Source: an uncultured Gammaproteobacteria bacterium | GTDB taxonomy: Bacteria; Cyanobacteriota; Vampirovibrionia; LMEP-6097 | Length of the DNA: 64,000 nt | Reading direction: 5' to 3' | Assembly (NCBI GenBank): GCA_964551135.1 | Contig: CAZKAT010000003.1 | Coordinates: forward strand, 90,942-154,941 | Shown here: positions 13,916 to 31,687 of the stretch, in pieces | How positions within the stretch are numbered: the stretch's first letter is position 1 | Layout: the number at the start of each line of letters is the position of its first letter | Notes under the pieces: model-generated | The model's database searches: none | What the model saw: only the letters and a program-made list of their open reading frames with translations | Told to the model about the DNA's origin: nothing | Translations under genes and position numbers: made by a program

Positions 13916-14221
13916 TTGCCTCTTAATTTATATACTCCTCAAGAGCTTCTTGAAAAAATAGCCATTAAGGCCAAACAAGTTAGATTAAATCAAAATCTTA
14001 CTCAAGAAGGATTAGCCTCTAGATCAGGAGTTAGCTTAGGTAGCGTGAAGAGATTTGAGAGAACCGGTCAAATATCTTTTGAGTCACTTTTAAAAATATC
14101 TCTGGTTCTGAATTCATTAAGTGATTTTGAAAATATTTTTGATGAGAATACTAAACCAATCAAAACCTTAGATGAAATCATTGCAGAACCTACAAAAAAA
14201 CTACGAGGTAGAATCAAATGA
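13916..14221 (+). CDS. hipB: HTH (XRE-like) antitoxin, HipB-like
   Basis: 101 aa. HTH segment LTQEGLASRSGVSLGSVKRFE. 4-bp overlap with hipA. Confidence 0.6.
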   Translation: MPLNLYTPQELLEKIAIKAKQVRLNQNLTQEGLASRSGVSLGSVKRFERTGQISFESLLKISLVLNSLSDFENIFDENTKPIKTLDEIIAEPTKKLRGRIK

Positions 14222-15453
14222 AAATCAATCCTCTACAATTATTAAAAGTATATTTGATCTTTTCAGAGAAGAAAAAGTTTTTTGTAGGTAGACTGGCTCT
14301 CAAAGATCAACAAATCTGGTTTGAATATGACAAAGAGTTTCTTCAAGAGAATTTGGAAATATCACCATTCAAACTTCCCTTAGGACCAAAACCCCTATCT
14401 TCTAAAGAGCAAATATTTAGTGGCTTACACGGTGTTTTCAATGATAGTCTTCCAGATTCTTGGGGGCAATTATTAGTAGACCGCAAATTGAGAAACTCAG
14501 GTATTGATCCAGGAAATCTTTCAGCCTTGGACAGACTATCCATAGTAGCGCAGCATGGAATGGGTGCCTTAAGTTATGAACCAGAACAAACTATATATGA
14601 TTACAAACACGAGAAATTAGATTTGGATAATTTATATAAAAGTTCACTTGAAATATTACAAGATAGCAGAAGTGAATCAATTGATGAATTGTTTTCTTTC
14701 AGCGGTTCCATTGGCGGCGCCAGACCGAAAATAACCGTATTAGTTAATAAGGACAGAAAAAAAATCCTTCATTCTCGAACAGAAAAAATCAAACACAATG
14801 ATTATGAACATTGGTTAATCAAATTCTCTGCCAACCAGGATCTTAGTGACCTTGGATTAATTGAATATGCTTACAGTTTAATGGCAAAAAAAGCCAACAT
14901 AGAAATGTCTGATACTTATTTATTCAACACCAAGAAATCAAATTATTTCGGTACCAAACGCTTTGATAGAAATGGTGATAAAAGATTACACATTCATAGC
15001 AGCTCAGGTCTTTTACATAGCGATTATAGATATCCAAGTCTAGATTACGAGAATCTATTTAAAGCAACTTTATTACTCACTAAAGATGCAAATGAACTTA
15101 GCAAACTTTATAGAATTACTGTATTTAACGTACTAGCTCATAACAGGGACGATCATAGTAAAAATTTCTCTTTTTTAATGGATGAACAAGGCACTTGGAA
15201 ACTATCTCCAGCTTATGATTTAACTTACTCAAACGGTCCCGGAGGCGAGCATAGTATGATGGTTTGCGGTGAAGGTAAAAATCCTGGAATAGAGGAACTT
15301 ACCAAACTTGCTAAAAAATTTAGCATAAAAAATTATCAAGAAATCATAGAAGCCACTAAGGATGCTGTATCACAATGGAAAAATATTGGGAAAGATATTG
15401 GAGTTTCAAAAGATTCCATAAAGCTTATAAGCGGGAAATTACTATATAATTAA
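14218..15453 (+). CDS. hipA: HipA family serine/threonine kinase toxin
   Basis: N-terminal HipA coupling domain. C-terminal catalytic motif HNRDDHSKNFSFLMDEQGTWKLSPAYDL. Confidence 0.85.
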   Translation: MKINPLQLLKVYLIFSEKKKFFVGRLALKDQQIWFEYDKEFLQENLEISPFKLPLGPKPLSSKEQIFSGLHGVFNDSLPDSWGQLLVDRKLRNSGIDPGNLSALDRLSIVAQHGMGALSYEPEQTIYDYKHEKLDLDNLYKSSLEILQDSRSESIDELFSFSGSIGGARPKITVLVNKDRKKILHSRTEKIKHNDYEHWLIKFSANQDLSDLGLIEYAYSLMAKKANIEMSDTYLFNTKKSNYFGTKRFDRNGDKRLHIHSSSGLLHSDYRYPSLDYENLFKATLLLTKDANELSKLYRITVFNVLAHNRDDHSKNFSFLMDEQGTWKLSPAYDLTYSNGPGGEHSMMVCGEGKNPGIEELTKLAKKFSIKNYQEIIEATKDAVSQWKNIGKDIGVSKDSIKLISGKLLYN

Positions 15454-15456
15454 GCT

Positions 15457-16320
15457 ATGTCCAACACTGAGAGTCAAAACCCCAATACCAAAAATCTTGA
15501 CAAGCTCAGTACTGAAGAGTTTGTAAGCACTTGGATTAATGAAGACAAAGCAGTATGGACAGCCTTAGATAAAGCTTCCACTCAAATCGCTAAAGCCATC
15601 GATATAATTTACAATCAATTTAAGGCAATTCAAGATGAATTAGAACCTTATGATCCAGGTCATCCAACAATCTACAAGGGTCCAAGATTGTTTTATATAG
15701 GAGCCGGTACTAGTGGGCGTTTGGGGGTACTCGATGCATCTGAGTGTCTACCAACATTCTCTTCACATCCAGACATGGTTCAAGGAATAATTGCTGGTGG
15801 TGATAAAGCTATCCGGCATCCAGTAGAAGGTGCTGAAGATGACGAAGCAGCAGGCTATAAGATCATCTCTGAGACTCTGAACCCCCAAGATACACTTGTA
15901 GCTGTTAGTGCAAGTGGTGGTGCACCTTATGTCATAGGTGCTCTGAAAGCTGCTAAGGAAAAGGGTGCTAAAACAATTGCTATAGCTAATAATCCTGATG
16001 CTTTAAGTTTTAAATATGCTGAACATTATATCTTTTTAGATACTGGCGCTGAGGTACTTGCAGGCAGCACTCGTCTTAAAGCTGGCACCGCTCAGAAAAT
16101 TACTCTCAATATGATCTCCACAGGATTAATGGTTAAACTTGGAAAAGTTATAGGAAATTTAATGGTGGATGTACAGGCTACTAATATTAAACTTAAGAAG
16201 AGAGCAATAGGATTAGTTAAACACTTAAATAATTGTTCAGAAGAAGAAGCAATAGAAGCTTTAGAGAAATGTCAATACAAAGTGAAAAAGTGCCTGAGTG
16301 ACCGAGGGGTGAGTGACTGA
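15457..16320 (+). CDS. murQ: N-acetylmuramic acid 6-phosphate etherase
   Basis: SIS domain with GAGTSGRLGVLDASECLPTF. 287 aa. The last ~8 codons run into a GC-rich hairpin element. Confidence 0.85.
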   Translation: MSNTESQNPNTKNLDKLSTEEFVSTWINEDKAVWTALDKASTQIAKAIDIIYNQFKAIQDELEPYDPGHPTIYKGPRLFYIGAGTSGRLGVLDASECLPTFSSHPDMVQGIIAGGDKAIRHPVEGAEDDEAAGYKIISETLNPQDTLVAVSASGGAPYVIGALKAAKEKGAKTIAIANNPDALSFKYAEHYIFLDTGAEVLAGSTRLKAGTAQKITLNMISTGLMVKLGKVIGNLMVDVQATNIKLKKRAIGLVKHLNNCSEEEAIEALEKCQYKVKKCLSDRGVSD

Positions 16321-16352
16321 GAATATAGAATTATTCAGGCACTCATTCACCC
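16296..16352. repeat. GC-rich imperfect hairpin element overlapping the murQ 3' end (terminator-like)
   Basis: GCCTGAGTGACCGAGGGGTGAGTGACTGAG ... loop ... CAGGCACTCATTCACCCAGACACCCAGTCACC. GC-rich arms in an AT-rich background. Shares a CCTGAG core with the other palindromic elements. Confidence 0.5.
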
Positions 16353-17338: not shown

Positions 17339-18682
17339 ATGGAAGAGAAGATTGCTAGCCCCGAAGTGATACGACTGATAGATGCTAAGCGTCAAGGACA
17401 AGCACATAGTACCGAAGAAATATTTTGGCTAATTAATCACCTGGATAAGATTCCTGATTACCAATTATCAGCTTGGTTAATGGCAGTCTGTTTAAATGGC
17501 TTAAATGATGAAGAGACTACTGAGCTTACGCGCGCCATGGCTTTTAGTGGTCATGTGCTAACGCTGAAACGTGAAGCACCAATGCATAATCATAGTCATG
17601 GTGATGATGACGAATGTGCAAGTATTTACGTACCTAATAGCAGAGGTTTTGTAGATAAGCATAGTACTGGTGGCGTGGGTGACAAAGTAACCTTAGTTCT
17701 CGCTCCTATACTAGCTTCTATCGGTTTTAAGATTTCTAAATTCTCAGGTAGATCACTAGGACATACTGGTGGTACTATCGACAAGCTTGAAGCTATTCCA
17801 GGATTTAAGACTGACATTTCTATGAAACAGTTTGAAAAGCAAATATCAGAAGTAGGTATTGCACTTGCAGGTCAAACTATGGAGTTTGCGCCAGCTGATA
17901 AGAGACTATATTCGCTTAGAGATAGAACTGCTACTGTAGAATCTATTCCGCTAATAGCTTCTAGTGTGATGTCCAAGAAGATCGCTGGTGGAGCAGATAT
18001 AATTCTTCTCGATGTGAAAGTTGGCTCAGGTGCTTTTATGAAAGATTTGAAGTACGCCAAACTACTAGCGAAACAAATGGTCAAGATCGGCAAAAAGCTC
18101 AATCTCAATACCAGAGCCATTATCAGCAATATGGATCAACCTCTAGGAGCTGCTGTCGGTAATGGTCCCGAACTTATAGAAGCCTTAGATCTACTTGAAG
18201 GCAAGGTTAAAAATGATCTTTATGATTTAGTGATGGAGTTTGCTGGTAGCATTGCAAGCACTATAGAAGTAGAAGATGCTATTCGTTCTGGTAAAGCTTA
18301 TGTAAAGATGCAAGAGTGGATAGAAGCGCAAGGTGGCGATCTTAGTAAAGTAAGAGAAGCTAACGAGCCTAAGTTTAAACTTGAGTGCAGAGCAGAGAAA
18401 GATGCTTACGTTAAAGAACTCAACGCACTTACAGTTGGACAAGTGATTCATGAACTTGCATATAAGCCTGCCGCTGGTGGCACTTACGACATCGATAATA
18501 GTGCAGGTGTTTGGTTTAAAGCTAAGATCTCTCAGAAAGTTAAACCAGGTGATTTATTATTCACTGTGCAAGGCTCTAATGAAGCGGATCTAGAACAAGC
18601 TAAAGAAAAAATTCTAGATGCTTATTTATTCACTGAAAATAAAGTACGCAAGCCTAAGCTCATTTTAAGAAAGTATAACTAA
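17339..18682 (+). CDS. pyrimidine-nucleoside (thymidine) phosphorylase
   Basis: Glycosyl-transferase family 3 and PYNP motifs (SAWLMAVCLNGLNDEETTELTRAMAFSG, HSTGGVGDKVTLVLAPI). The start is chosen at the Met after the repeat; the ORF track starts at 17303. Confidence 0.85.
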   Translation: MEEKIASPEVIRLIDAKRQGQAHSTEEIFWLINHLDKIPDYQLSAWLMAVCLNGLNDEETTELTRAMAFSGHVLTLKREAPMHNHSHGDDDECASIYVPNSRGFVDKHSTGGVGDKVTLVLAPILASIGFKISKFSGRSLGHTGGTIDKLEAIPGFKTDISMKQFEKQISEVGIALAGQTMEFAPADKRLYSLRDRTATVESIPLIASSVMSKKIAGGADIILLDVKVGSGAFMKDLKYAKLLAKQMVKIGKKLNLNTRAIISNMDQPLGAAVGNGPELIEALDLLEGKVKNDLYDLVMEFAGSIASTIEVEDAIRSGKAYVKMQEWIEAQGGDLSKVREANEPKFKLECRAEKDAYVKELNALTVGQVIHELAYKPAAGGTYDIDNSAGVWFKAKISQKVKPGDLLFTVQGSNEADLEQAKEKILDAYLFTENKVRKPKLILRKYN

Positions 18683-20514
18683 TGCTTTAAAACTGGTTCA
18701 GTTATAGGCTCCTCGGACTGATGACTTGCAATCTTCCCATATGCATAAACTTTATTTTTCTTGATCATTTCATAAACAGTACCGTTGGTACCGATTAACG
18801 AAGCCTCAGTAACTGAGCTTTGGAACTTCGTCATTTTCAGTGAAGTTTTAGTTAGCTCTAATGGTTCAGCAATCGCAATCCTAGTTTCAGAGAATTTTGC
18901 TAAGTTTTTGTTATCACTAGGATTAGTTAAGTACTTATCGAACTCCGGTAAACACCTAAATTTAGCTACAAAATACTTAGTATCCTTCTCTGATGGATCA
19001 GTTAAGTACTTAAATAACCCCTTATTATCCAATTCAGCAACTGGTCTCTCAGCATAAAAACTAAAAACTGTAGCATGAGTTTTATAGGTGACTAATTTAT
19101 CTTCAGGTTTAAGTGACAAGGAGAAAGCTTTAGCTCCTGCATCTCTATAAATAGCAAAAGGACGAAGAATATAATGAGTGCTCACCAAGTAGCAAACTAA
19201 ACTAACTCCACTAATAATCGCAAAAGCCACTTTAGCTTTATAGAGCATTGCCGTCATTGCAACTAAAGCCGCTGCAATAAGTACAAAAGAAATTATTGCT
19301 ATACACGCTAGTACAGAAGAAGAATTCATCTCTAATAATTTCTTCTTAAATACGAATAAACCAAGTACTGCTCCGATAAACACAGTAAGAACCATTAAAG
19401 CTAAACCAATCAAACCATCTATATTCTTATAACCATTACTTCTAAGTGTCTTAAATTTCTCTGACCACCACTTAGCAACAATAACTATTAGTGGTAAATA
19501 AATTGGCATAATATAAGTCGGTAACTTGGTTTGAGATATACTGAAAAATAATAAAATGATAGTCGCCCACAAAGAACAAAAACTCATAAGGTGAGCTGCC
19601 TTTGCAGATTCTGCTCTAAGATTAAATTTCGTAGAATGGTCATTAGAGAATAAAGCTTGTATCAAGAAGAACGACCATGGAAATAATCCAACAATAATTA
19701 CTGGAATATAGTACCAGATTGGACCAGCGTGATTAGTCAGAACATTGAGATACCTGGATAAATTATGTCCCATAAAAAATTCATAAGTAAATTTACCTGC
19801 AGTTGCAAAATGCACCGCCATATACCATGGCACAGATATTAACAAGAATAATCCAAACCCAATACTTAGCTCCATCCATGTGTCAGCCAAGAAATCAAAT
19901 AAATCTTTTTCAAGAACCAAGAAAATAAAAATTACCACTAGTGGTAGCAATACGGCTACTGGTCCCTTACAAAGCATGCCAAATGCCATCATTACTAAAG
20001 ACAACCAAAACCAAGCTGAGCTTTGTTTCTCTTTCAATGCAAATTTTTGCTGGATTTCTTGCCTCTCGCGATAGCCTAAATAAAAGAAAGCAATAGCAGC
20101 AGAAATAAAAAACGCCAGCGTCATATCAGTGATAGCAAGCTTAGAAAATAAAAATATCTGCAAGCTAGTAAGCATCATTGCTGCTGCTACCAAACCAAAG
20201 CCCTGAATATTTCCCAACAAGAATGCTAACCATACCATTCCTGCTCCAGCTAATACCGACGGTAAACGTGCAGCAAATTCATTGAGCCCAAAGAATTTCA
20301 GAGATAAAACTTCAAACCAATAGAAAAGTATAGGCTTATCAAAACGCGGCAAGTAATCACAATAAGGTGTAATGAAATCTGCTCTCTCAAGCATTTCACG
20401 AGCAGTCTCAGCATAGCGAGGCTCATCAGGACTAATCAATGGAAAAGATCCTATATCCAAACCGAGAATCACCGCTGCGACTATAGGAATTAATAGTAGA
20501 AATAAATTATTCAT
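18679..20514 (-). CDS. ArnT/PMT-family (GT39/GT83-like) membrane glycosyltransferase
   Basis: N-terminal DEPRYAETAREMLERADFITPY...RFDKPILFYWF motif, ~12 TM helices and a C-terminal soluble domain. 611 aa. Confidence 0.75.
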   Translation of the reverse strand: MNNLFLLLIPIVAAVILGLDIGSFPLISPDEPRYAETAREMLERADFITPYCDYLPRFDKPILFYWFEVLSLKFFGLNEFAARLPSVLAGAGMVWLAFLLGNIQGFGLVAAAMMLTSLQIFLFSKLAITDMTLAFFISAAIAFFYLGYRERQEIQQKFALKEKQSSAWFWLSLVMMAFGMLCKGPVAVLLPLVVIFIFLVLEKDLFDFLADTWMELSIGFGLFLLISVPWYMAVHFATAGKFTYEFFMGHNLSRYLNVLTNHAGPIWYYIPVIIVGLFPWSFFLIQALFSNDHSTKFNLRAESAKAAHLMSFCSLWATIILLFFSISQTKLPTYIMPIYLPLIVIVAKWWSEKFKTLRSNGYKNIDGLIGLALMVLTVFIGAVLGLFVFKKKLLEMNSSSVLACIAIISFVLIAAALVAMTAMLYKAKVAFAIISGVSLVCYLVSTHYILRPFAIYRDAGAKAFSLSLKPEDKLVTYKTHATVFSFYAERPVAELDNKGLFKYLTDPSEKDTKYFVAKFRCLPEFDKYLTNPSDNKNLAKFSETRIAIAEPLELTKTSLKMTKFQSSVTEASLIGTNGTVYEMIKKNKVYAYGKIASHQSEEPITEPVLKH

Positions 20515-21286
20515 TAGTAGCAGATTTCACTGAAGGCTTCTCAGAAAGAGATCTATAGATAAGGAATGCAGCCCTGCCTATAACTCTATTCTTAGGCAAG
20601 AGTCCCCAATAATGACTATCAAAACTATAATTGCGATTATCACCAAGAACATAGTAGAAACCTTCTGGTATCTCTAGTTCATCAGTATCATATTCAGGTA
20701 AAAAATTCATACTAGCGAAATGATATGGTTCTTCTAAATGACGCCCATTGATAAAGACCCCTTCGTTCTTACGAACTTGAACCTTATCTCCTGGTACTCC
20801 TACAATTCTTTTAATATAAGCTTCTGGTTGAGGTAAGAAAGGTAGTCCAGTCAATCTAGCAAAAATACTTAGCGGATCATAATGCAGTACATCCTTACCA
20901 TCAGTAGCTTCTAAGGGTGGATAGAAGATTATAATATCGCCACGATTATATTGCTTATGGAATATTTTAGAAAACTTCTCGACGAATAATTTATCACCGA
21001 CTTTCATAGTTGGAACCATACTCTCTGAAGGTATAAATCTAAACTCTCCAACAGCTTCACGAATAAGAATCAGTAGTATAAGAACAACAACTATCTGAGC
21101 TGTGACTTCTTGTACTCCCCAGAATCTCCACTCTGGATATTTATAATATTTTTTCCAGCTAGTATCTTCCTTCTCTTCAGGTGCTTCACGCGTTGGCTTA
21201 GACCATTGCACTAAGTCCATAAGACCTTCTTTAATTCCTTGGAATATAGCTTTCAGAATATCTAATAGGTCGTTTATAAAATTCAT
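20507..21286 (-). CDS. lepB: signal peptidase I
   Basis: SESMVPTMKVGDKLFVEKF (Ser box), GDNRNYSFDSHYWG box, and RVIGRAAFLIYRS. Confidence 0.85.
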   Translation of the reverse strand: MNFINDLLDILKAIFQGIKEGLMDLVQWSKPTREAPEEKEDTSWKKYYKYPEWRFWGVQEVTAQIVVVLILLILIREAVGEFRFIPSESMVPTMKVGDKLFVEKFSKIFHKQYNRGDIIIFYPPLEATDGKDVLHYDPLSIFARLTGLPFLPQPEAYIKRIVGVPGDKVQVRKNEGVFINGRHLEEPYHFASMNFLPEYDTDELEIPEGFYYVLGDNRNYSFDSHYWGLLPKNRVIGRAAFLIYRSLSEKPSVKSATNE

Positions 21287-21432: not shown

Positions 21433-22461
21433 ATGATAACAACAAACCCTTTAATAGCTAAATTTGAATACAAAGATGGTCGTCAACGTGGAAATAGAGT
21501 CGGGGTAGTCGACAAAGAATCTGGGAAAATAACAGATATAACAGACCAAGTAGTTCAAAATGCCTCAATCAAAACTATAGATAGACTACTCAACTGGAAC
21601 GATAGATTAACAAGAGTGGGAAAGGCTCTTGAAAAGGCACAACAGGAAGCAGCTAACACAATATCTGCAGCAGAAGTAAAATTAAAAACACCATTACCTG
21701 ATAATATGCAAATTGGTTGTGCTGGTGTTACTTATAAAAGAAGTGTTGTTGCAAGAAACGCTGAATCTGGTGCAGCCCAAGGTTTAAGTCCGTATGATAA
21801 AGTCCATTTGGCTATGCTTAATAATGGTAAAAAAGACGGAAGACCAGAAATATTCTATAAACAATTAGCTAAAGATGCAGCTGCATCAGGTGAGGTCGCT
21901 GGAATCAGAGAAGATGCTAAATGGAATGTACCTGAATCTGAATTTACCATAGTATTGAATTCTCAGGGTAAGGTCGCTGGATATACCATAGGTAATGATA
22001 TGAGTTCTAGAGATATAGAAGGAGAAAATCCTTTATATTTACCTCAAGCCAAGGTTTACCATAGATCAGTAGCAGTCGGACCGTATCTATTATTGACTGA
22101 TGCTAATGATGACCCTACAAAAATTGAAAGAGACGAGACTGAAATCAAACGTGATTGGAAGGTAGAGCTGAAAATTCTTAGAGGTGATCAAGAAGTATTC
22201 AACGGTGAAACTCAAGTGGGTCAATTAGCAGCAAGCTTTAAACAATTAAAAGATTACTTGCTCAGATCACAGTACTTTCCTGATGGAATTGCGCTGTTAA
22301 CTGGTACAGGAATAATACCTGAGGATAAATTTACCTTACAAGATGGTGACAAGATGAAAATTACAATTGGACCAATGGGCACTCTTGTAAATGAAGCTCA
22401 AACTATTCCTAATAAATTAACCAAAGACAAAGTTGCAGAATTAGCAGCGATAGCAGCTTAA
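21433..22461 (+). CDS. fumarylacetoacetate hydrolase (FAH) family protein
   Basis: C-terminal FAH-like core (GYTIGNDMSSRDIEGENPLYLPQAKVYHRSVAVGPYLL). Confidence 0.55.
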   Translation: MITTNPLIAKFEYKDGRQRGNRVGVVDKESGKITDITDQVVQNASIKTIDRLLNWNDRLTRVGKALEKAQQEAANTISAAEVKLKTPLPDNMQIGCAGVTYKRSVVARNAESGAAQGLSPYDKVHLAMLNNGKKDGRPEIFYKQLAKDAAASGEVAGIREDAKWNVPESEFTIVLNSQGKVAGYTIGNDMSSRDIEGENPLYLPQAKVYHRSVAVGPYLLLTDANDDPTKIERDETEIKRDWKVELKILRGDQEVFNGETQVGQLAASFKQLKDYLLRSQYFPDGIALLTGTGIIPEDKFTLQDGDKMKITIGPMGTLVNEAQTIPNKLTKDKVAELAAIAA

Positions 22462-25400
22462 TCACTTCACATTAAAATACTTAGCATCAGGATGATGGAC
22501 TATTATCGCTGAAGTCGAGTGTTCAGGATGTATTTGCCATTCTTCAGAGAGTTCTAGACCAATACGCTCAGGCTTAAGCATCTCAAAGACCTGCTTCTGA
22601 TCTTCGATACGCGGGCAGGCTGGATAACCAAAGCTATAGCGCAGACCATGGTAGCTACCACGAATTAGCTTATAATAATCCTTATCATCTTCAGCAGAGA
22701 CTCCTAGTTCTTGGCGGATTCGAGCATGAGAATATTCTGCAAGCGCTTCGGTAGTCTCTGTGGCTAGACCATAATGATAGAGATACTCTTGGAAGTCTCC
22801 TGATTCGTATAATTTCCTTACGTAGTTTGCAGCTTCCTGACCGATAGTCACTACTTGAAAAGCCACCATGTTAGTTTTACCAGTAGTTCTAAAGTAGTCA
22901 CTGAGACATAAATGTTCACCACTAGTTTGACGCGGGAAGATGAACTCTTGGGTGCCATTAGGAGTATCAACTATAAGTTTATTAGGATTATTAGCACCTA
23001 TCTTGCAAGCATAATATCCATAAGTTATTTTAGGATGAATATACCCTGCTGACTTAGCTTCAGCCTTAACACGCTCTAAGGTTGGAAGAATAATAGTCTC
23101 GCGTTGCTTCTTATACTCAGCTTCACTCTGTTTACCTTTACCCATGCGCCATTGACCAATAATAAGCGCGTCGACATTTAAATACTTCCAGACTTCATCT
23201 AGATTAATATTATTCTCGATTAATTTATCACCGTAGAAAGGTGCCTTAGGTATTTCAGAGCTATCCAAGACTCTAGTATTAGATAGGTTCTCAGTGTAAG
23301 TAAATATATCAGCATGAAGCTTACCGTCTTCTACTGCATCATAAGGAGCTTCAGTTTCAGGATTAACTTGCTCAGGATCTTTTACCGCAGCTCTAGTCTT
23401 ATAGAACTCTTTCTTCACTGCCTCGAGATCACCTCCAGCACAAATCTTCTCCATCAAGCTCAAATCAGTAAACGCATCGAAACCATAGAATACAGTCCCC
23501 TTATAAATTTGCGCGCAATCTTCTTCTACGTAACGGCGAGTCAACGCAGAGCCACCCAATATCACTGGGATACTAATATTACGTTCATTCATAGCTTCTA
23601 GATTCTGCTTCATGATGAGAGTAGACTTAACTAGCAAACCTGACATACCGATAACATTAGCCTTATGTTCTTCTAATGCTTTAAGTATCTCGTCTATAGG
23701 TTGTTTAATACCAAGGTTATAAACCTTATAACCATTATTAGTAAGAATGATATCTACTAAGTTCTTGCCGATATCATGAACATCGCCTCTAACAGTAGCA
23801 AGCACTATAGAACCCTTATTACCAGCACCTTCTGCTTTGGTCATAAACTTCTCCAAATGAGCCACTGCAGTCTTCATGCAAGTAGCAGATTGAAGTACAA
23901 ACGGTAACTGCATCTCACCAGAGCGGAATCTATCACCGACTATCTTCATACCATTCATAAGAAATATATTAATGATATCGAGTGGTTTATGTCCCTTAGC
24001 CATAGCCACATCCAGATCCTTATCTATATTGGTTTTATTACCGTCAACGATTCTTCGCGCAAGTATCTCTTCTACTTCTAAGCCTTCATAGGGATTAGCA
24101 TTTTCGCTAGTATCATGCTTGATATCAGCGATACAATCGAGCAGCGCATGTAAAGGATCGTAATCTTCACGTCTGCGATCATAAACTAAATCCAAACAAT
24201 AATCTCTTACCTTAGGATCTAACTGTGCAATAGGATAAAGCTTCTTAGCAGAAGCTATAGCCATATCAAGTCCAGCTTCTATACACTCATGCAAGAATAC
24301 CGAGTTCAAAGCTGGTCTCAGCTTAGCATCCAGACCAAAGCTAATATTACTTAAGCCTAAGATAGTTTTCACTTCAGGATATTTTTCCTTGATCATGCGG
24401 ATAGATTTAATTGTCTCCACTCCAGCATTACGCATTTCTTCATCACCAGAGCCCAAGGTGAAAGTTAAAGTATCATAGATTAAATTACGCGGATCTAATC
24501 CATACTTATGCACTAACATTTCATAGAGACGACTTGCAACAGCGAGTTTCTTCTCCGCCGTCTTAGCCATACCTTCTTCATCTATAGTTAATACTACTAA
24601 AGCTGCACCAAATTGTCGTGCAAGACCTGCTATCTGTGCCACACGCTCTTCACCATCTTCTAAGTTAACTGAATTGATAATAGGCTTACCAGAAATATAT
24701 TTCAGCGCTTCCTTCAAAACCGGATACTCAGTGCTATCTACCATGATCGGAATATTAACCTGGGTATTAATACGCTTGATCACTTCAACCATGTCATGCA
24801 TTTCATCACGCCCAACATAGGCAGTACAGACATCGAGTACATGGGCGCCTTCTGCGACTTGATCTTTAGCAATATCGACTATGCCTTCATAATCACCCAC
24901 ACCAAGTAAGTCTCTAAATAATTTAGAACCATTAGCATTAGTACGCTCTCCTACAATCAGCGGGCGTGGCTCCATAATCATAGGCACTGAATTATAGATA
25001 GAGGAAACTGATTCTATAGCTTCGTCACTTTGAGCCTTATGCTCCACATGCTGAGGAAGCTTTGCAACTTTAGCTGCAAGCAATCTTATATGCTCATAAG
25101 TCGTTCCACAACAGCCACCTACAACACCCACACCAAAATCCTCAACAAAGCGTGTAAGTTCATTAGAAAACTCTTCTGGTCCCAAAGGGAAGTGTGCATG
25201 TCCACCCACATTCTCAGGAATACCTGCATTCGGCAAGCAACTCACCATAAACGGAGCATTCTCTGCAAGGTAACGGATATGCTCGCGCATCTCCTTAGGT
25301 CCTGTTGCGCAGTTCATTCCAATGATATCTATAGGATAAGCACTAAGAGTAGTAAGAACTGAAGCGATATCAGAACCAACCAACATCGTTCCCATAGTTT

Positions 25401-26127
25401 CTACAGTCACCTGTACTTGAATAGGAATTCTATTCGGAATTCTTGAGCCTGCCCCAGAAGCTCCCAGATGCAAGGCTTGCGAGTCCTGAGGAGCCAGAGT
25501 TGACTGAGTCGTCAATGAGGACTCCGAAGGACGAGCGTAACGCAGCAGATGGGACTTCTGGGGCAGGCTCATCACATCGAAACAAGCACTTAGGCAAGCC
25601 TTGATCTGGAGCGGATCCTGGCAAGTTTCTATCAGGATTAAATCCACACCGCCATCTATTAGACCAGCTACTTGTGGTTTATAACTTTCATAAAGTTCAT
25701 CAAAACTAATATTGCCCAGGCTAACTAATTTAGTACCAGGTCCAATAGAACCAGCTACGAATCTTGGCTTATTAGGTTCATGCGCTGTAAATTTATCTGC
25801 GACTTCTCGCGCTAGGCTAGCAGCAAGTTTACTAATCTCATAAGATTTATCTTCTAGTCCATACTCACCAAGCACTAATCTACTAGAACCAAAAGTATTA
25901 GTCTCTACTACATCAGCTCCAGCCTCAAAAAACTTAGTATGAATTTCTTGGATAATATCCGGACGATGAACATTTAATTGTTCTGGGCAACCTTCATATA
26001 TCTCCCCACCATAATCTTCAGCCGTCAGATCATAACTAAATAAACTCGTGCCCATAGCACCATCAAAAATAATGGTGTGCTTTTTAGCAGTTTCAAGAAA
26101 TTTGGATTTAGTTTGATTATTAGACAA
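22462..26127 (-). CDS. metH: cobalamin-dependent methionine synthase
   Basis: 1221 aa. Hcy-binding (FDGAMGTSLF), pterin-binding and B12-binding (GDVHDIGKNLV) regions plus the AdoMet reactivation domain. Carries an in-frame ~130-bp GC-rich palindromic insertion in the Hcy domain. Confidence 0.95.
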   Translation of the reverse strand: MSNNQTKSKFLETAKKHTIIFDGAMGTSLFSYDLTAEDYGGEIYEGCPEQLNVHRPDIIQEIHTKFFEAGADVVETNTFGSSRLVLGEYGLEDKSYEISKLAASLAREVADKFTAHEPNKPRFVAGSIGPGTKLVSLGNISFDELYESYKPQVAGLIDGGVDLILIETCQDPLQIKACLSACFDVMSLPQKSHLLRYARPSESSLTTQSTLAPQDSQALHLGASGAGSRIPNRIPIQVQVTVETMGTMLVGSDIASVLTTLSAYPIDIIGMNCATGPKEMREHIRYLAENAPFMVSCLPNAGIPENVGGHAHFPLGPEEFSNELTRFVEDFGVGVVGGCCGTTYEHIRLLAAKVAKLPQHVEHKAQSDEAIESVSSIYNSVPMIMEPRPLIVGERTNANGSKLFRDLLGVGDYEGIVDIAKDQVAEGAHVLDVCTAYVGRDEMHDMVEVIKRINTQVNIPIMVDSTEYPVLKEALKYISGKPIINSVNLEDGEERVAQIAGLARQFGAALVVLTIDEEGMAKTAEKKLAVASRLYEMLVHKYGLDPRNLIYDTLTFTLGSGDEEMRNAGVETIKSIRMIKEKYPEVKTILGLSNISFGLDAKLRPALNSVFLHECIEAGLDMAIASAKKLYPIAQLDPKVRDYCLDLVYDRRREDYDPLHALLDCIADIKHDTSENANPYEGLEVEEILARRIVDGNKTNIDKDLDVAMAKGHKPLDIINIFLMNGMKIVGDRFRSGEMQLPFVLQSATCMKTAVAHLEKFMTKAEGAGNKGSIVLATVRGDVHDIGKNLVDIILTNNGYKVYNLGIKQPIDEILKALEEHKANVIGMSGLLVKSTLIMKQNLEAMNERNISIPVILGGSALTRRYVEEDCAQIYKGTVFYGFDAFTDLSLMEKICAGGDLEAVKKEFYKTRAAVKDPEQVNPETEAPYDAVEDGKLHADIFTYTENLSNTRVLDSSEIPKAPFYGDKLIENNINLDEVWKYLNVDALIIGQWRMGKGKQSEAEYKKQRETIILPTLERVKAEAKSAGYIHPKITYGYYACKIGANNPNKLIVDTPNGTQEFIFPRQTSGEHLCLSDYFRTTGKTNMVAFQVVTIGQEAANYVRKLYESGDFQEYLYHYGLATETTEALAEYSHARIRQELGVSAEDDKDYYKLIRGSYHGLRYSFGYPACPRIEDQKQVFEMLKPERIGLELSEEWQIHPEHSTSAIIVHHPDAKYFNVK
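25443..25572. repeat. GC-rich nested palindromic element inserted in-frame within metH (RPE-like)
   Basis: Terminal inverted repeat GAGCCTGCCCCAGAAG / CTTCTGGGGCAGGCTC. Inner palindrome TTGACTGAGTCGTCAA. Encodes an extra segment (~LPQKSHLLRYARPSESSLTTQSTLAPQDSQALHLGASGAGSRIPN) in the MetH Hcy domain. Confidence 0.7.
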
Positions 26128-26230: not shown

Positions 26231-28081
26231 ATGAAAGATCGAATTAATCGCATATATATTCCTCCTCCTTTTAATATAGAAAGTACTCAACAATTCTATG
26301 ATCGCCATGTTGCAAGAATCTTAGGAACCAATCCATCAAGCCCACCTAATACCGGAAACAATCAAACAAAAGAGCCAGAAGCTGCAAGAAAATCGTTAGC
26401 ATTAATGTTCAAATCCATTCCTGGTACTCGTAAAGAGATTGATAAAATACTTAAACAAAGTTTTCAGAAATTTTTAGCTGAACTGGACACCAAAGCAGCA
26501 GAGTTAGCTTTATTAGATAAATCTAGCTTTGAGTACAAACAGCAATTCCATGCTTTAGCTACAGAATTTGAAACAAGAGTTGCAGAATTTAATGACAGTA
26601 ACAGTTCAGATCACGCCAAAACTAAAACTGAAACTTGTACAAAACTATTGCAAGATTTTTTGATTAGTAGATTTAGTGAAGCATCAATGGATCCAACAAA
26701 TATTCTGATAGCAACCCTTATACTCAGAAGTAATCAAGGAATAATCGTAGATTTAATTAAAAACTATCTTGCAGCAGACCAAGATGACAAAACTGCTAAA
26801 AATTTCTTGGCTACAACTCAATCAGCTAGACTCTCTGAAGATCCTATTATATTTAAGTCTTTATTCCATGCCTCTGTCGACGGTATAGAAGATTATAAAT
26901 CCAACGAGAAAAAAAGAATCACGGAAAATTTAATAGGCTTAAGTCCAGGCTCCAATCCCAATAGTAAAGGTCAATATCTACTAAAATACTCCTTAGAACA
27001 AGAACAAAATTTACTAGATGAGTATAAATTGCTTTTTTTTCAATTAAGTAACTTAGATGAAGATGACGACGATAATTATGATGTTGCAACGATAGGTATT
27101 GAAGATACTGATGAAGAGCCTCAAGAAGACTTAGAAGAGAAAATCAGAGCACTTAAAACAGATACTATAATCATACGTCATTTAATCGATCAATTATATA
27201 ACTCTCCTGAAATTCATCCCATTCTTTCCAGTCAGGAAGTTTTAGATGAGTTAGATCAAACCAATCCAATTCAAACTCAGGATGATTTTATTCACTTATT
27301 AGATGAAGTATATGATGAAAATATTGCCAACCTTTTTGATACTAATTTACTTAAATCAACTTTAACTACTGCTATCCAGTTTGCTAAGGCAAATCCAGGT
27401 AAGCTTAAGATAGAACAAGTCAGCAATAAATTAGAAGAAGTTATTAATAAATTAGATGAATTTACTAATAAATTAGATAACTATCCTGGCTTTTATTTAA
27501 TGCAATTAACGACTGCTATTGAACTGTATTCTAAACATTTTGCTCCTGATAGACCAAATGATTTTTTGATAAATCTAGCAATAAATCCAGAAACCAGTGA
27601 TGTATTAAAATGTATAGTTGTTCAAACAATTGCAGATTCAAAAGTATTCACTGTCAGGCTAAAGAGAGACTTTAATCAAGGACAATTGGATAGCCTAGCA
27701 ACATTATTTGCAGCAGCGAATAATACCAAGAAACTATTCGAACCTCTAAGGGCTTTTTTGAGTAAGCTAAATTATCAAGACTTTACTTGTTGTATTAATG
27801 GACTTAGAGGAAAAGCTTCATTGGAGATCGACAAAAACAATCAAATAGTAAACCGTGGAACTTTTAACAATGGAAATATTCTTTCAATTATTGCTAATCA
27901 ATTCAAATGGGAAGACGCCAAGGACCCAATCTCTATAAATTTAGTTCAGTATATAGAAGAATCACTTAACAATGAAAAATTACGTGAAGGTGATACAAAG
28001 ATTGCTCAATTTATTAAATTCATCATAGATAATAATGACAATCCAAAAGATGAAACACCAGCTCCAAATTTTCAAATATAA
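26231..28081 (+). CDS. large acidic helical hypothetical protein (candidate secreted effector)
   Basis: 616 aa. No signal peptide or TM. Acidic run DEDDDDNYDVATIGIEDTDEEPQEDLEE. No recognisable enzymatic motif. Confidence 0.5.
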   Translation: MKDRINRIYIPPPFNIESTQQFYDRHVARILGTNPSSPPNTGNNQTKEPEAARKSLALMFKSIPGTRKEIDKILKQSFQKFLAELDTKAAELALLDKSSFEYKQQFHALATEFETRVAEFNDSNSSDHAKTKTETCTKLLQDFLISRFSEASMDPTNILIATLILRSNQGIIVDLIKNYLAADQDDKTAKNFLATTQSARLSEDPIIFKSLFHASVDGIEDYKSNEKKRITENLIGLSPGSNPNSKGQYLLKYSLEQEQNLLDEYKLLFFQLSNLDEDDDDNYDVATIGIEDTDEEPQEDLEEKIRALKTDTIIIRHLIDQLYNSPEIHPILSSQEVLDELDQTNPIQTQDDFIHLLDEVYDENIANLFDTNLLKSTLTTAIQFAKANPGKLKIEQVSNKLEEVINKLDEFTNKLDNYPGFYLMQLTTAIELYSKHFAPDRPNDFLINLAINPETSDVLKCIVVQTIADSKVFTVRLKRDFNQGQLDSLATLFAAANNTKKLFEPLRAFLSKLNYQDFTCCINGLRGKASLEIDKNNQIVNRGTFNNGNILSIIANQFKWEDAKDPISINLVQYIEESLNNEKLREGDTKIAQFIKFIIDNNDNPKDETPAPNFQI

Positions 28082-30420: not shown

Positions 30421-30540
30421 AGTGTGTCATCCTGAGGAGGAGCCGAAGGCGACGACGTAAGGATCCACTACAACACTGAATTTATTAATGAGAGTGGATC
30501 CTTACGGTCGGGCTGCGCCCTCCCTCAGGATGACGAACGG
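30421..30540. repeat. GC-rich palindromic element (~43-bp inverted arms, 23-bp loop), intergenic
   Basis: GTCATCCTGAGGAGGAGCCGAAGGCGACGACGTAAGGATCCACT ... loop ... AGTGGATCCTTACGGTCGGGCTGCGCCCTCCCTCAGGATGAC. Shares CCTGAGGAG and CCGAAGG cores with the metH element. Abuts the stop codon of the permease gene. Confidence 0.75.
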
Positions 30541-31651: not shown

Positions 31652-31687
31652 AATGACGCGGACGCATGCGACGTCAGGGTGCGTCAT
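31652..31687. repeat. small GC-rich palindrome cluster between the ClC and permease genes
   Basis: ATGACGCGGACGCATGCGACGTCAGGGTGCGTCAT. Outer IR ATGACGC/GCGTCAT and inner GCATGC and GACGTC palindromes. Overlaps the ClC stop codon. Confidence 0.55.

Follow-up and report, generated by a model that had tools for sequence, protein, structure and literature searches.

An in-frame hairpin element in a bacterial metH gene and the probable mobile repeat family to which it belongs

The metH locus and its hairpin element

The stretch of DNA analyzed here, hereafter called the window, comprises 64,000 nt of contig CAZKAT010000003.1 (GenBank assembly GCA_964551135.1, positions 90,942 to 154,941). All positions refer to this whole stretch, and the source genome was read only as these 64 kb. 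The window carries metH, encoding cobalamin-dependent methionine synthase, on the minus strand at 22462-26127, and a GC-rich hairpin element lies within this gene. MetH (1221 amino acids [aa]) was recognized as intact from its open reading frame (ORF), its homologs, mapping onto Protein Data Bank structures, and its Pfam domains, all five of which are kept (PF02574, PF00809, PF02607, PF02310, and PF02965). The element forms an imperfect palindrome of 128 nt at 25444-25571 (plus strand). It matches covariance model R1 of the repeat family described below, referred to as family 1, over its full length (model positions 1-128; 150.9 bits, E = 1.4e-31), and the nhmmer match of the same segment to family 1 has E = 4.8e-39. 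A first-pass annotation made from the DNA sequence had proposed an in-frame, GC-rich insertion with terminal inverted repeats at 25443-25572, in the homocysteine (Hcy)-binding domain of an AT-rich gene; each of these points held, and the boundaries moved by 1-2 nt.

The left terminal arm, TGAGCCTGCCCCAGAAG (25444-25460, plus strand), and the right terminal arm, CTTCTGGGGCAGGCTCA (25555-25571, plus strand), are each 17 nt long, are 100% complementary to each other, and are separated by 94 nt. An inverted-repeat search across the 64 kb found no second pair of matching quality and spacing. For a 16-mer of the arm, 0.11 chance occurrences are expected in the window at ≤3 mismatches, and the two arms are the only perfect matches. 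GC content is 0.59 in the element, compared with 0.41 in metH and 0.36 in the window. In the mRNA sense, the element is predicted to fold as a single long interrupted hairpin of −75.2 kcal/mol, compared with −44.7 ± 3.7 for shuffled sequences (z = −8.2; none of 200 shuffles as good), and the opposite strand folds at −82.0 kcal/mol. The inner perfect palindrome that had been described is real in its perfect 5-bp arms, TTGAC-N6-GTCAA with a nested GACT-G-AGTC, but these do not make up one long palindrome. The apical module, GAGTTGAC-TGAGT-CGTCAATGAG (25497-25519, plus strand), is the most conserved part of family 1, with columns invariant in 24 copies. The usual sense strand of the family is the plus strand of the window, so that the metH copy is antisense to metH. 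Judged from its perfect arms and from Watson-Crick pairing in 40 of 42 pairs, this appears to be a young family-1 copy.

The reading frame of metH runs unbroken through the element, which encodes residues 187-228 (42 aa, SLPQKS...GAGS; SLPQKSHLLRYARPSESSLTTQSTLAPQDSQALHLGASGAGS). Among 8000 scored MetH homologs, the closest were P0001 (88% identity), P0002 (85%), and P0003 (78%), whose genes were taken as loci L002, L003, and L004, respectively. All three lack the segment: where the closest orthologs read DVM-QEKDIK-IPIQVQV, the window protein has DVM, the 42 extra residues, RIPNR, and then IPIQVQV. DNA alignment to the three loci gave a single clean 123-nt gap with the empty site GATGTGATG^CAAGAG. 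The net gain over the closest ortholog is thus 123 nt or 41 codons, so the in-frame addition stands but not the earlier estimate of about 43 aa. DNA and protein alignments to the same three loci also delimited a remodeled junction at 25423-25443 (minus strand), directly downstream of the insert in the coding direction. Here, RIPNR stands in place of QEKDIK, KEKAIK, or QEKQIK; 5-6 codons are remodeled, the stretch is 1 nt shorter, and it holds the near-repeat AGAATTCCGAAT / AGAATTCCTATT. The exact ends of the element are ambiguous because the junction can be read as TG^CA without a duplication and the adjoining codons are remodeled. A 124-nt insert followed by a compensating 1-nt deletion was considered for this junction; the lengths fit, and the 15 intervening nt are too diverged to prove it.

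Alignment of the Thermus MetH structures 8SSC and 8G3H covers residues 9-186 and 226/228-419; the two parts are joined by neighboring chain residues, and nothing in the structures stands opposite the insert. An AlphaFold2 model of MetH residues 1-420, made from a 40-sequence alignment, had a mean predicted local distance difference test (pLDDT) score of 80.4 and a predicted template modeling (pTM) score of 0.80. The TIM barrel was modeled with pLDDT >90, and residues 201-230 with pLDDT 38-48. In the model, helix 172-187 precedes the insert and strand 236-240 follows it, which places the insert in an alpha-to-beta loop of the Hcy barrel. Alpha-to-beta loops of (beta/alpha)8 barrels lie on the face opposite the catalytic face. 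The insert is thus predicted to be a disordered surface loop compatible with the fold, in line with the surface location anticipated by the first-pass annotation.

An ancestral or lineage-specific functional loop of MetH, or an artefact of assembly, would also account for extra residues at this site. In favor of an old loop, more distant Melainabacteria MetH proteins (P0006-P0033 and locus L084) carry another insert at the same position (query residues 187-235). It is a conserved segment of ~45 aa (range 40-70), DIEEEC.DLSDEEL..KYPRAV....K.GL..R.R.P, and its presence indicates that the position tolerates insertions. However, this DIEE..YPRAV..GL loop is unrelated in sequence to the element and is missing from the three closest relatives of the window, which also lack the element itself, and at the DNA level copies in atpG, tkt, and other genes match the metH segment with 82-87% identity. 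The identical 1221-aa MetH is encoded on four assembled contigs, three of them >200 kb, which argues against an assembly artefact. Both explanations are effectively refuted.

A family of dispersed hairpin repeats

A blastn search of the rest of the window with the metH element gave no other match. A protein search with its open frames led to a transketolase N-terminal subunit, P0122 (...KLPDARLASSEEPELTEPSMRILKGSRNAADG...), and to a small unknown protein, P0121, whose copy uses another frame than that of P0122. Further copies were found by blastn in atpG of L004 and at a second metH site in L003, which lies in the linker that precedes the B12-binding Rossmann domain; neither the atpG site nor this metH site is occupied in the window or in other orthologs. 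The cores of these first five copies are 82-87% identical in DNA, and their terminal arms differ yet stay self-complementary. A scan of 185,579 species-representative genomes for the apical motif GAGTTGAC-N5-CGTCAATGAG returned 78 loci. R1 was built from 24 full-length family-1 copies and, together with nhmmer, gave 82 matches in 656 kb. Approximately 56 of these are clear family-1 members, distributed over at least 14 related metagenome-assembled genomes (MAGs), and the richer MAGs hold at least 8-11 copies each. The MAGs are labeled Melainabacteria/Caenarcanales or "uncultured Gammaproteobacteria," the latter including the owner of P0002. The earlier suggestion of a dispersed repeat was thus borne out for the metH element: related copies exist in sister genomes, and their repeats fold. 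At L024 3725-4130, three family-1 copies or fragments stand in tandem within ~400 nt, an arrangement that recalls arrays of repetitive extragenic palindromic (REP) sequences and bacterial interspersed mosaic elements.

Rfam 15 gave no match for the window copy at gathering thresholds or at E ≤10, and none on 10 loci holding family-1 copies. Plasmid and phage collections searched by blastn in distant mode had no family-1 match. The motif scan of IMG/VR returned one hit, which has the motif but no hairpin around it (11.7 bits) and was taken as a control for chance matches. Literature searches retrieved no description of such elements in Melainabacteria. Among known kinds of selfish repeat, family 1 is a new family with a new architecture. 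An intein or a self-splicing intron was rejected on account of the length of only 42 codons, the absence of an Rfam intron match, and the open frames kept by the copies within ORFs. Removal of the segment is unlikely because open frames would be unnecessary if the copies were excised.

The conserved structure was derived from a MAFFT alignment of the 24 copies and an RNAalifold consensus of 42 pairs. Standard pairs occupied 95.5% of cells, compared with 82.1% when partners were shuffled and 33-40% when partners were slid by 1-3 columns. Changes on both sides were seen for 25 of the 42 pairs, against 16.7 ± 1.8 in shuffles, and none of 500 shuffles reached the observed values. These counts are to be read with the structure having been predicted on the plus strand, with related copies inflating them, and with arm-to-arm correction in a DNA palindrome as a process that could mimic selection. 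The apical six pairs and most internal-loop positions are invariant across the 24 copies. From these alignments, the hairpin is judged to be real and conserved by compensatory changes, whether the acting molecule is DNA or RNA.

Twenty-six of the 56 family-1 copies lie in stop-free spans of ≥600 nt. By Pfam, the hosts of ORF copies include FlgA, an HD-domain protein, an M3 oligopeptidase, LeuA (in two species), Lpd-like and TrxR-like flavoproteins, a short-chain dehydrogenase/reductase (SDR), a CN hydrolase, PurD, HisF (in two species), an Amidase_3 enzyme, a PFOR-type enzyme, Ffh, RlmN, phosphoglucomutase, and a U32 peptidase, in addition to MetH (two sites), AtpG, and transketolase. Empty orthologous sites were shown for four insertions, namely the two metH sites, atpG, and the PMT_2 gene described below. 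Inserts common to the orthologs of two species (L051 with L025, and L071 with L084) indicate vertical persistence. The LeuA copies of L033 and L060 share the same position and are read in different frames. AtpG was also seen to carry another kind of repeat: in the loop that holds the family-1 copy in L004, AtpG of L002 (18990-19931) has a different insert, the peptide DLSGEAQR(T/A)KP twice in tandem, and the AtpG of the window has neither insert.

Twenty-four of the 26 ORF copies have the same orientation, in two frames, with the peptides KLPDARLASSEEPELTE.SMR..ERNAADG and GLGQGICERGAGVD..VNEDAERANNAE. Two copies, including that of the window metH, are antisense, or three if a 438-nt ORF of L005 is counted. 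Intergenic copies lie between convergent genes in 11 cases and between divergent genes in 2, and many abut ORF ends, at the 3' ends of genes. Those with co-directional flanking genes show no orientation bias (3 sense and 3 antisense; 5 and 3 when one flank is known). Because intergenic copies lack a bias, the strong preference of ORF copies for the sense orientation is best put down to selection on the encoded peptide and not to the insertion mechanism.

The window also contains a probable old, decayed family-1 copy at 18795-18903 (minus strand; R1 28.6 bits, E = 0.0029; GC 0.38). It is in frame and in the sense orientation in a PMT_2 glycosyltransferase gene (18682-20526, minus strand). Among the R1 matches listed, it is the weakest, and it coincides with a 39-aa PMT_2 insert that is absent in all three orthologs examined. 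The insert peptide, KFSETRIAIAEPLELTKTSLKMTKF, matched the peptide of the L043 copy by BLASTP (E = 7e-9), and a profile of the frame-A peptide detected it in the six-frame translation of the window (E = 0.004). The DNA match is weak (score 22, compared with 16.3 ± 2.6 for shuffles). This segment is probably an old copy whose composition has drifted toward that of the genome, in which case a single 64-kb window would hold one young and one decayed copy of family 1.

Mode of spread and comparison with known repeats

The metH segment is, with high confidence, a non-autonomous mobile repeat that is translated as a passenger of its host gene. Family 1 would have been spreading in Caenarcaniphilales-like Melainabacteria when a young copy landed in the DNA for the MetH alpha-to-beta loop. 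Three features may account for its persistence: a net change divisible by three, a frame free of stops, and the floppy surface loop that the 41 added residues would form on the non-catalytic face. As read from the sequence, the element is probably translated and not removed. About half of the surviving family-1 copies would likewise be in-frame passengers in housekeeping genes, with the rest mostly at gene 3' ends. The elements were presumably mobilized in trans by a transposase, and the metH copy is presumably neutral for MetH activity. As the route of movement, a TA-targeting cut-and-paste (DDE-type) enzyme appears slightly ahead of a Y1 enzyme acting on single-stranded DNA. Of 20 intergenic copies, 7 have TA at each terminus (TAAACTTGTT...AACAAGTTTA), although the TA could belong to the repeat itself, and intergenic copies often lie exactly at stop codons. 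[quoted passage not shown]

Several observations weigh against a mobile element of this kind. No clear target-site duplication accompanies the metH copy, whose junction can be placed in more than one way (TG^CA) and is followed by 5-6 remodeled codons. The termini vary more than the apex, which is unusual for a MITE recognized by a transposase. No autonomous parent or transposase gene with the same ends was found, and no protein recurs beside the copies, in the ~650 kb of related loci, a limited sampling; all-against-all clustering of the ORFs beside copies brought together only syntenic orthologs and a group of ABC ATPase paralogs.

The same repeat may instead move as single-stranded DNA, with a Y1/HUH enzyme (IS200/IS605-like or like a REP-associated tyrosine transposase [RAYT]) recognizing the folded plus strand, as for REP sequences and their hairpin-forming doublets (REPINs). 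We consider this unlikely, yet it accounts for several features. G-U oppositions exceed A-C oppositions by 67:11 (151:29 in a larger set), an excess that is partly built in since the structure was predicted on the plus strand. Internal loops are 78% purine on the family plus strand, with three conserved tandem GA/GA oppositions; these loops could also reflect selection for a hydrophilic sense-frame peptide. The greater conservation of the apex and internal loops relative to the termini, and the lack of a flanking duplication at metH, would fit such an enzyme. A Y1_Tnp gene (PF01797, IS200-like, 311 aa) is present ~9 kb from metH in the closest relative (L002 360-1295), but it is not flanked by family-1 copies: R1 finds none in L002, and the matching part of the window's contig lacks the gene. 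Further points against a single-strand route are that the half-units are not self-palindromic, that the ends carry no GTAG or CGTC tag, that the left flank shows no conserved target tetranucleotide, and that the intergenic copies have no preferred orientation.

The hairpin could also be a functional RNA element selected in the metH message, such as an RNase III site, a stability site, or a translational pause, and not a passenger. The stability of the predicted fold and the strong covariation would suit such a role, as would the concentration of intergenic copies at the 3' ends of genes and in gaps between convergent genes, positions in which hairpins can end or stabilize transcripts. However, covariation in a DNA palindrome can come from arm-to-arm correction as well. 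The metH copy is antisense to the orientation of 24 of the 26 ORF copies, the nearest orthologs do without the segment, the host genes are unrelated in function, no Rfam match was obtained, and no T-run follows the hairpin. An RNA function is therefore very improbable, and a mobile repeat that is translated as a passenger remains the preferred explanation.

In-frame palindromic repeats in essential genes have been treated largely as a peculiarity of Rickettsia, with scattered cases elsewhere. Rickettsia palindromic elements (RPEs) are described as being ~150 bp long, with nearly half in frame in unrelated genes, a conserved peptide, and no transposase known (Ogata et al. 2000, summarized in PMC10969869). 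Family 1 resembles RPEs in being a dispersed palindromic repeat of ~100-150 bp, with near half of the copies in frame in intact housekeeping genes, in having certain frames that encode a conserved hydrophilic peptide, in subfamilies that differ in their intragenic share, and in the lack of a known transposase. Unlike RPEs, which occur in Alphaproteobacteria, family 1 has a Melainabacteria-like host, its most conserved part is the hairpin apex and not an end tag, and the same apex recurs in hairpins of several other phyla. The apical-motif scan of the 185,579 genomes returned no Rickettsia. Family 1 is supported as an RPE-like in-frame palindromic repeat in the sense of a behavioral class, not of kinship. 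The first-pass annotation had likened the segment to Rickettsia elements as a selfish repeat tolerated inside an essential enzyme; the tolerated, repeat-derived insertion stands, and the likeness is supported as one of behavior.

Family 1 shares with the Correia, ERIC, Nezha, and QMITE MITEs a small size, terminal inverted repeats, a transcript that forms a stable hairpin, and the lack of a transposase gene, as well as TA termini in many copies and occasional in-frame fusions with host ORFs (PMC10969869, PMC5896051). It thus has the short length, terminal inverted repeats, and missing transposase gene by which MITEs are recognized, and it lacks a cognate autonomous insertion sequence in the loci sampled. 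It differs from bacterial MITEs in its far higher share of copies in ORFs (26/56), its variable but compensated termini around a near-invariant center, the missing parent insertion sequence, and a target-site duplication that is not evident at metH. REP sequences and GTAG- or CGTC-tagged repeats consist of self-palindromic units of 20-40 nt with a terminal tag (Di Nocera et al. 2013, PMC3733652); the CGTC-tagged families include RPE-4 and RPE-6 and are also without a dedicated transposase (PMC3733652). REP/REPIN and tagged repeats, like family 1, form hairpins and are sometimes intragenic. In family 1, by contrast, the arms pair with each other and not with themselves, the termini are RRMCYTGTY-like and untagged, a single CGTC lies at the apex and not at an end, and no RAYT gene is associated with the copies in the sampled loci.

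The RPE-like behavior of family 1 occurs at a similar frequency in an unrelated free-living or predatory sister lineage of cyanobacteria. Its copies in orthologous genes span young, intermediate, and decayed stages, with two sites in MetH and copies of two ages in the 64-kb window, and offer a route by which to follow the origin of new surface loops. Such inserts lengthen MAG proteins and can mislead annotation and alignment.

Host lineage, hairpins in other phyla, and other features of the window

The named Caenarcanales locus L084 shares the gene order around metH with the window, and its MetH is 63% identical. The MetH proteins of copy-holding MAGs labeled "uncultured Gammaproteobacteria" are closest to those of named Melainabacteria/Caenarcaniphilales MAGs. 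Because of the shared gene order and these closest matches, the source is probably a Caenarcaniphilales-like lineage of Melainabacteria (Vampirovibrionia), and the gammaproteobacterial labels of the copy-holding MAGs are doubtful and look wrong. Records titled "uncultured Gammaproteobacteria bacterium" include CAYPGT, CAZELI, CAZQXM, CAYUFH, CAZASO, CAZKFA, and CAYQSL; in CAYPGT, the metH ORF of locus L016 and the position of its element agree with those of L003. L004 is contig JACCDV010459359.1 of GCA_013565675.1, whose contig numbering (>459,000) points to an assembly of great size, possibly eukaryotic or mixed, that would contain this bacterium as a passenger.

Full-length hairpins of ~125 nt with an identical apex, (C)GGAGTTGAC-N6-GTCAATGAG(C/G)A, often with an AAGGC / AACGCAG loop, were detected in other phyla. 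They occur in a Legionellales MAG (four loci, L036, L042, L059, and L083), in another gammaproteobacterial MAG, in a Rickettsiella MAG, and in six Xanthomonadales genomes at a syntenic locus (L013, L021, L055, L063, L073, and L078; Thermomonas, Lysobacterales); the loci with such hairpins include L082 and L022, and the hairpins at the loci named here are near-perfect. Some again lie within ORFs. A Billgrantia (Halomonadaceae) hairpin is located in a 748-aa ORF, and five Nitrospira genomes have a hairpin of ~125 nt with the same apex in frame in an HsdR (type I restriction) protein of ~985 aa, between helicase motifs (L007 4213-4337, with matching sites in L038, L068, L072, and L079). In an alphaproteobacterial MAG, a near-perfect hairpin with a variant apex is in frame in UbiE (L070 4910-5037). 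Approximately 10 other motif hits, including Alistipes, Peribacillus, Ruminococcaceae, and a single viral hit, had no R1 match, in line with the ~17 chance hits calculated when 18 fixed bases are sought on both strands of 596 Gb. Since the motif was the search key, the invariance of the apex across phyla is partly an effect of the method; the surrounding hairpins and shared loops are not. Coxiella QMITE1 and QMITE2 were rejected as kin of the Legionellales hairpins, as they are ~400 bp long and 150-190 bp long with GTAG REPs, respectively, and thus differ in sizes and features.

We tentatively suggest, as a possibility still short of an even chance, that family 1 is one branch of a cross-phylum superfamily of ~125-nt hairpins, whose members would have in common the nearly invariant apical module and the AAGGC / AACGCAG internal loop but have freely covarying arms, with a widely distributed enzyme that would recognize the folded apex and not the ends. 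If true, such elements would be mobilized in another way than classical MITEs and REPINs, and new protein loops would have a general source in them. A motif and a covariance model for finding the mobilizing enzyme are supplied by the conserved apex, by compensation between the arms, and by the hairpins related to family 1 in other phyla.

Three other GC-rich elements of the window, at 16296-16352, 30421-30540, and 31652-31687, had been proposed as kin of the metH element. None was placed in family 1 by R1, nhmmer, or blastn. The CCTGAGGAG / CCGAAGG cores on which the proposal rested were not robust: the local alignment score of 22 with the metH copy compares with 15.5 ± 2.2 for shuffled sequences, of which 18 of 1000 scored as high, and a test with the family consensus gave no excess over shuffles. 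No other copy of 16296-16352 or 31652-31687 was found in the ~650 kb of related DNA. The segment at 30421-30540 belongs to a separate family of intergenic palindromic repeats, tagged CGTC...GACG, for which Rfam gave no match at gathering thresholds or at E ≤10. It consists of CGTCATCCTGAGGAGGAGCCGAAGGCGACGACGTAAGGATCCACT, an AT-rich loop, and then AGTGGATCCTTACGG..CCCTCAGGATGACG, with outer CGTC/GACG tags followed by AT. Its inner GCC-GAA-GGC stem covaries; L002 holds three copies and L044 two. This family is similar to the CGTC-tagged repeats that Di Nocera et al. described (2013, PMC3733652).

The gene content around metH varies among the close relatives. An FAA_hydrolase gene at 21433-22461, downstream of metH, is present in L003 and not in L002 or L004. 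A 616-aa ORF at 26231-28081, upstream of metH, has no Pfam match; it is absent in L002 and present in L004 (578 aa). A hipB-hipA toxin-antitoxin pair (HTH_3; Couple_hipA/HipA_C) lies at ~13916-15453 (L001 20675-22212), between SIS-domain and ABC ATPase genes. This slot is variable, being empty in L002 and occupied by an AAA_14/DUF4143 gene in L004.

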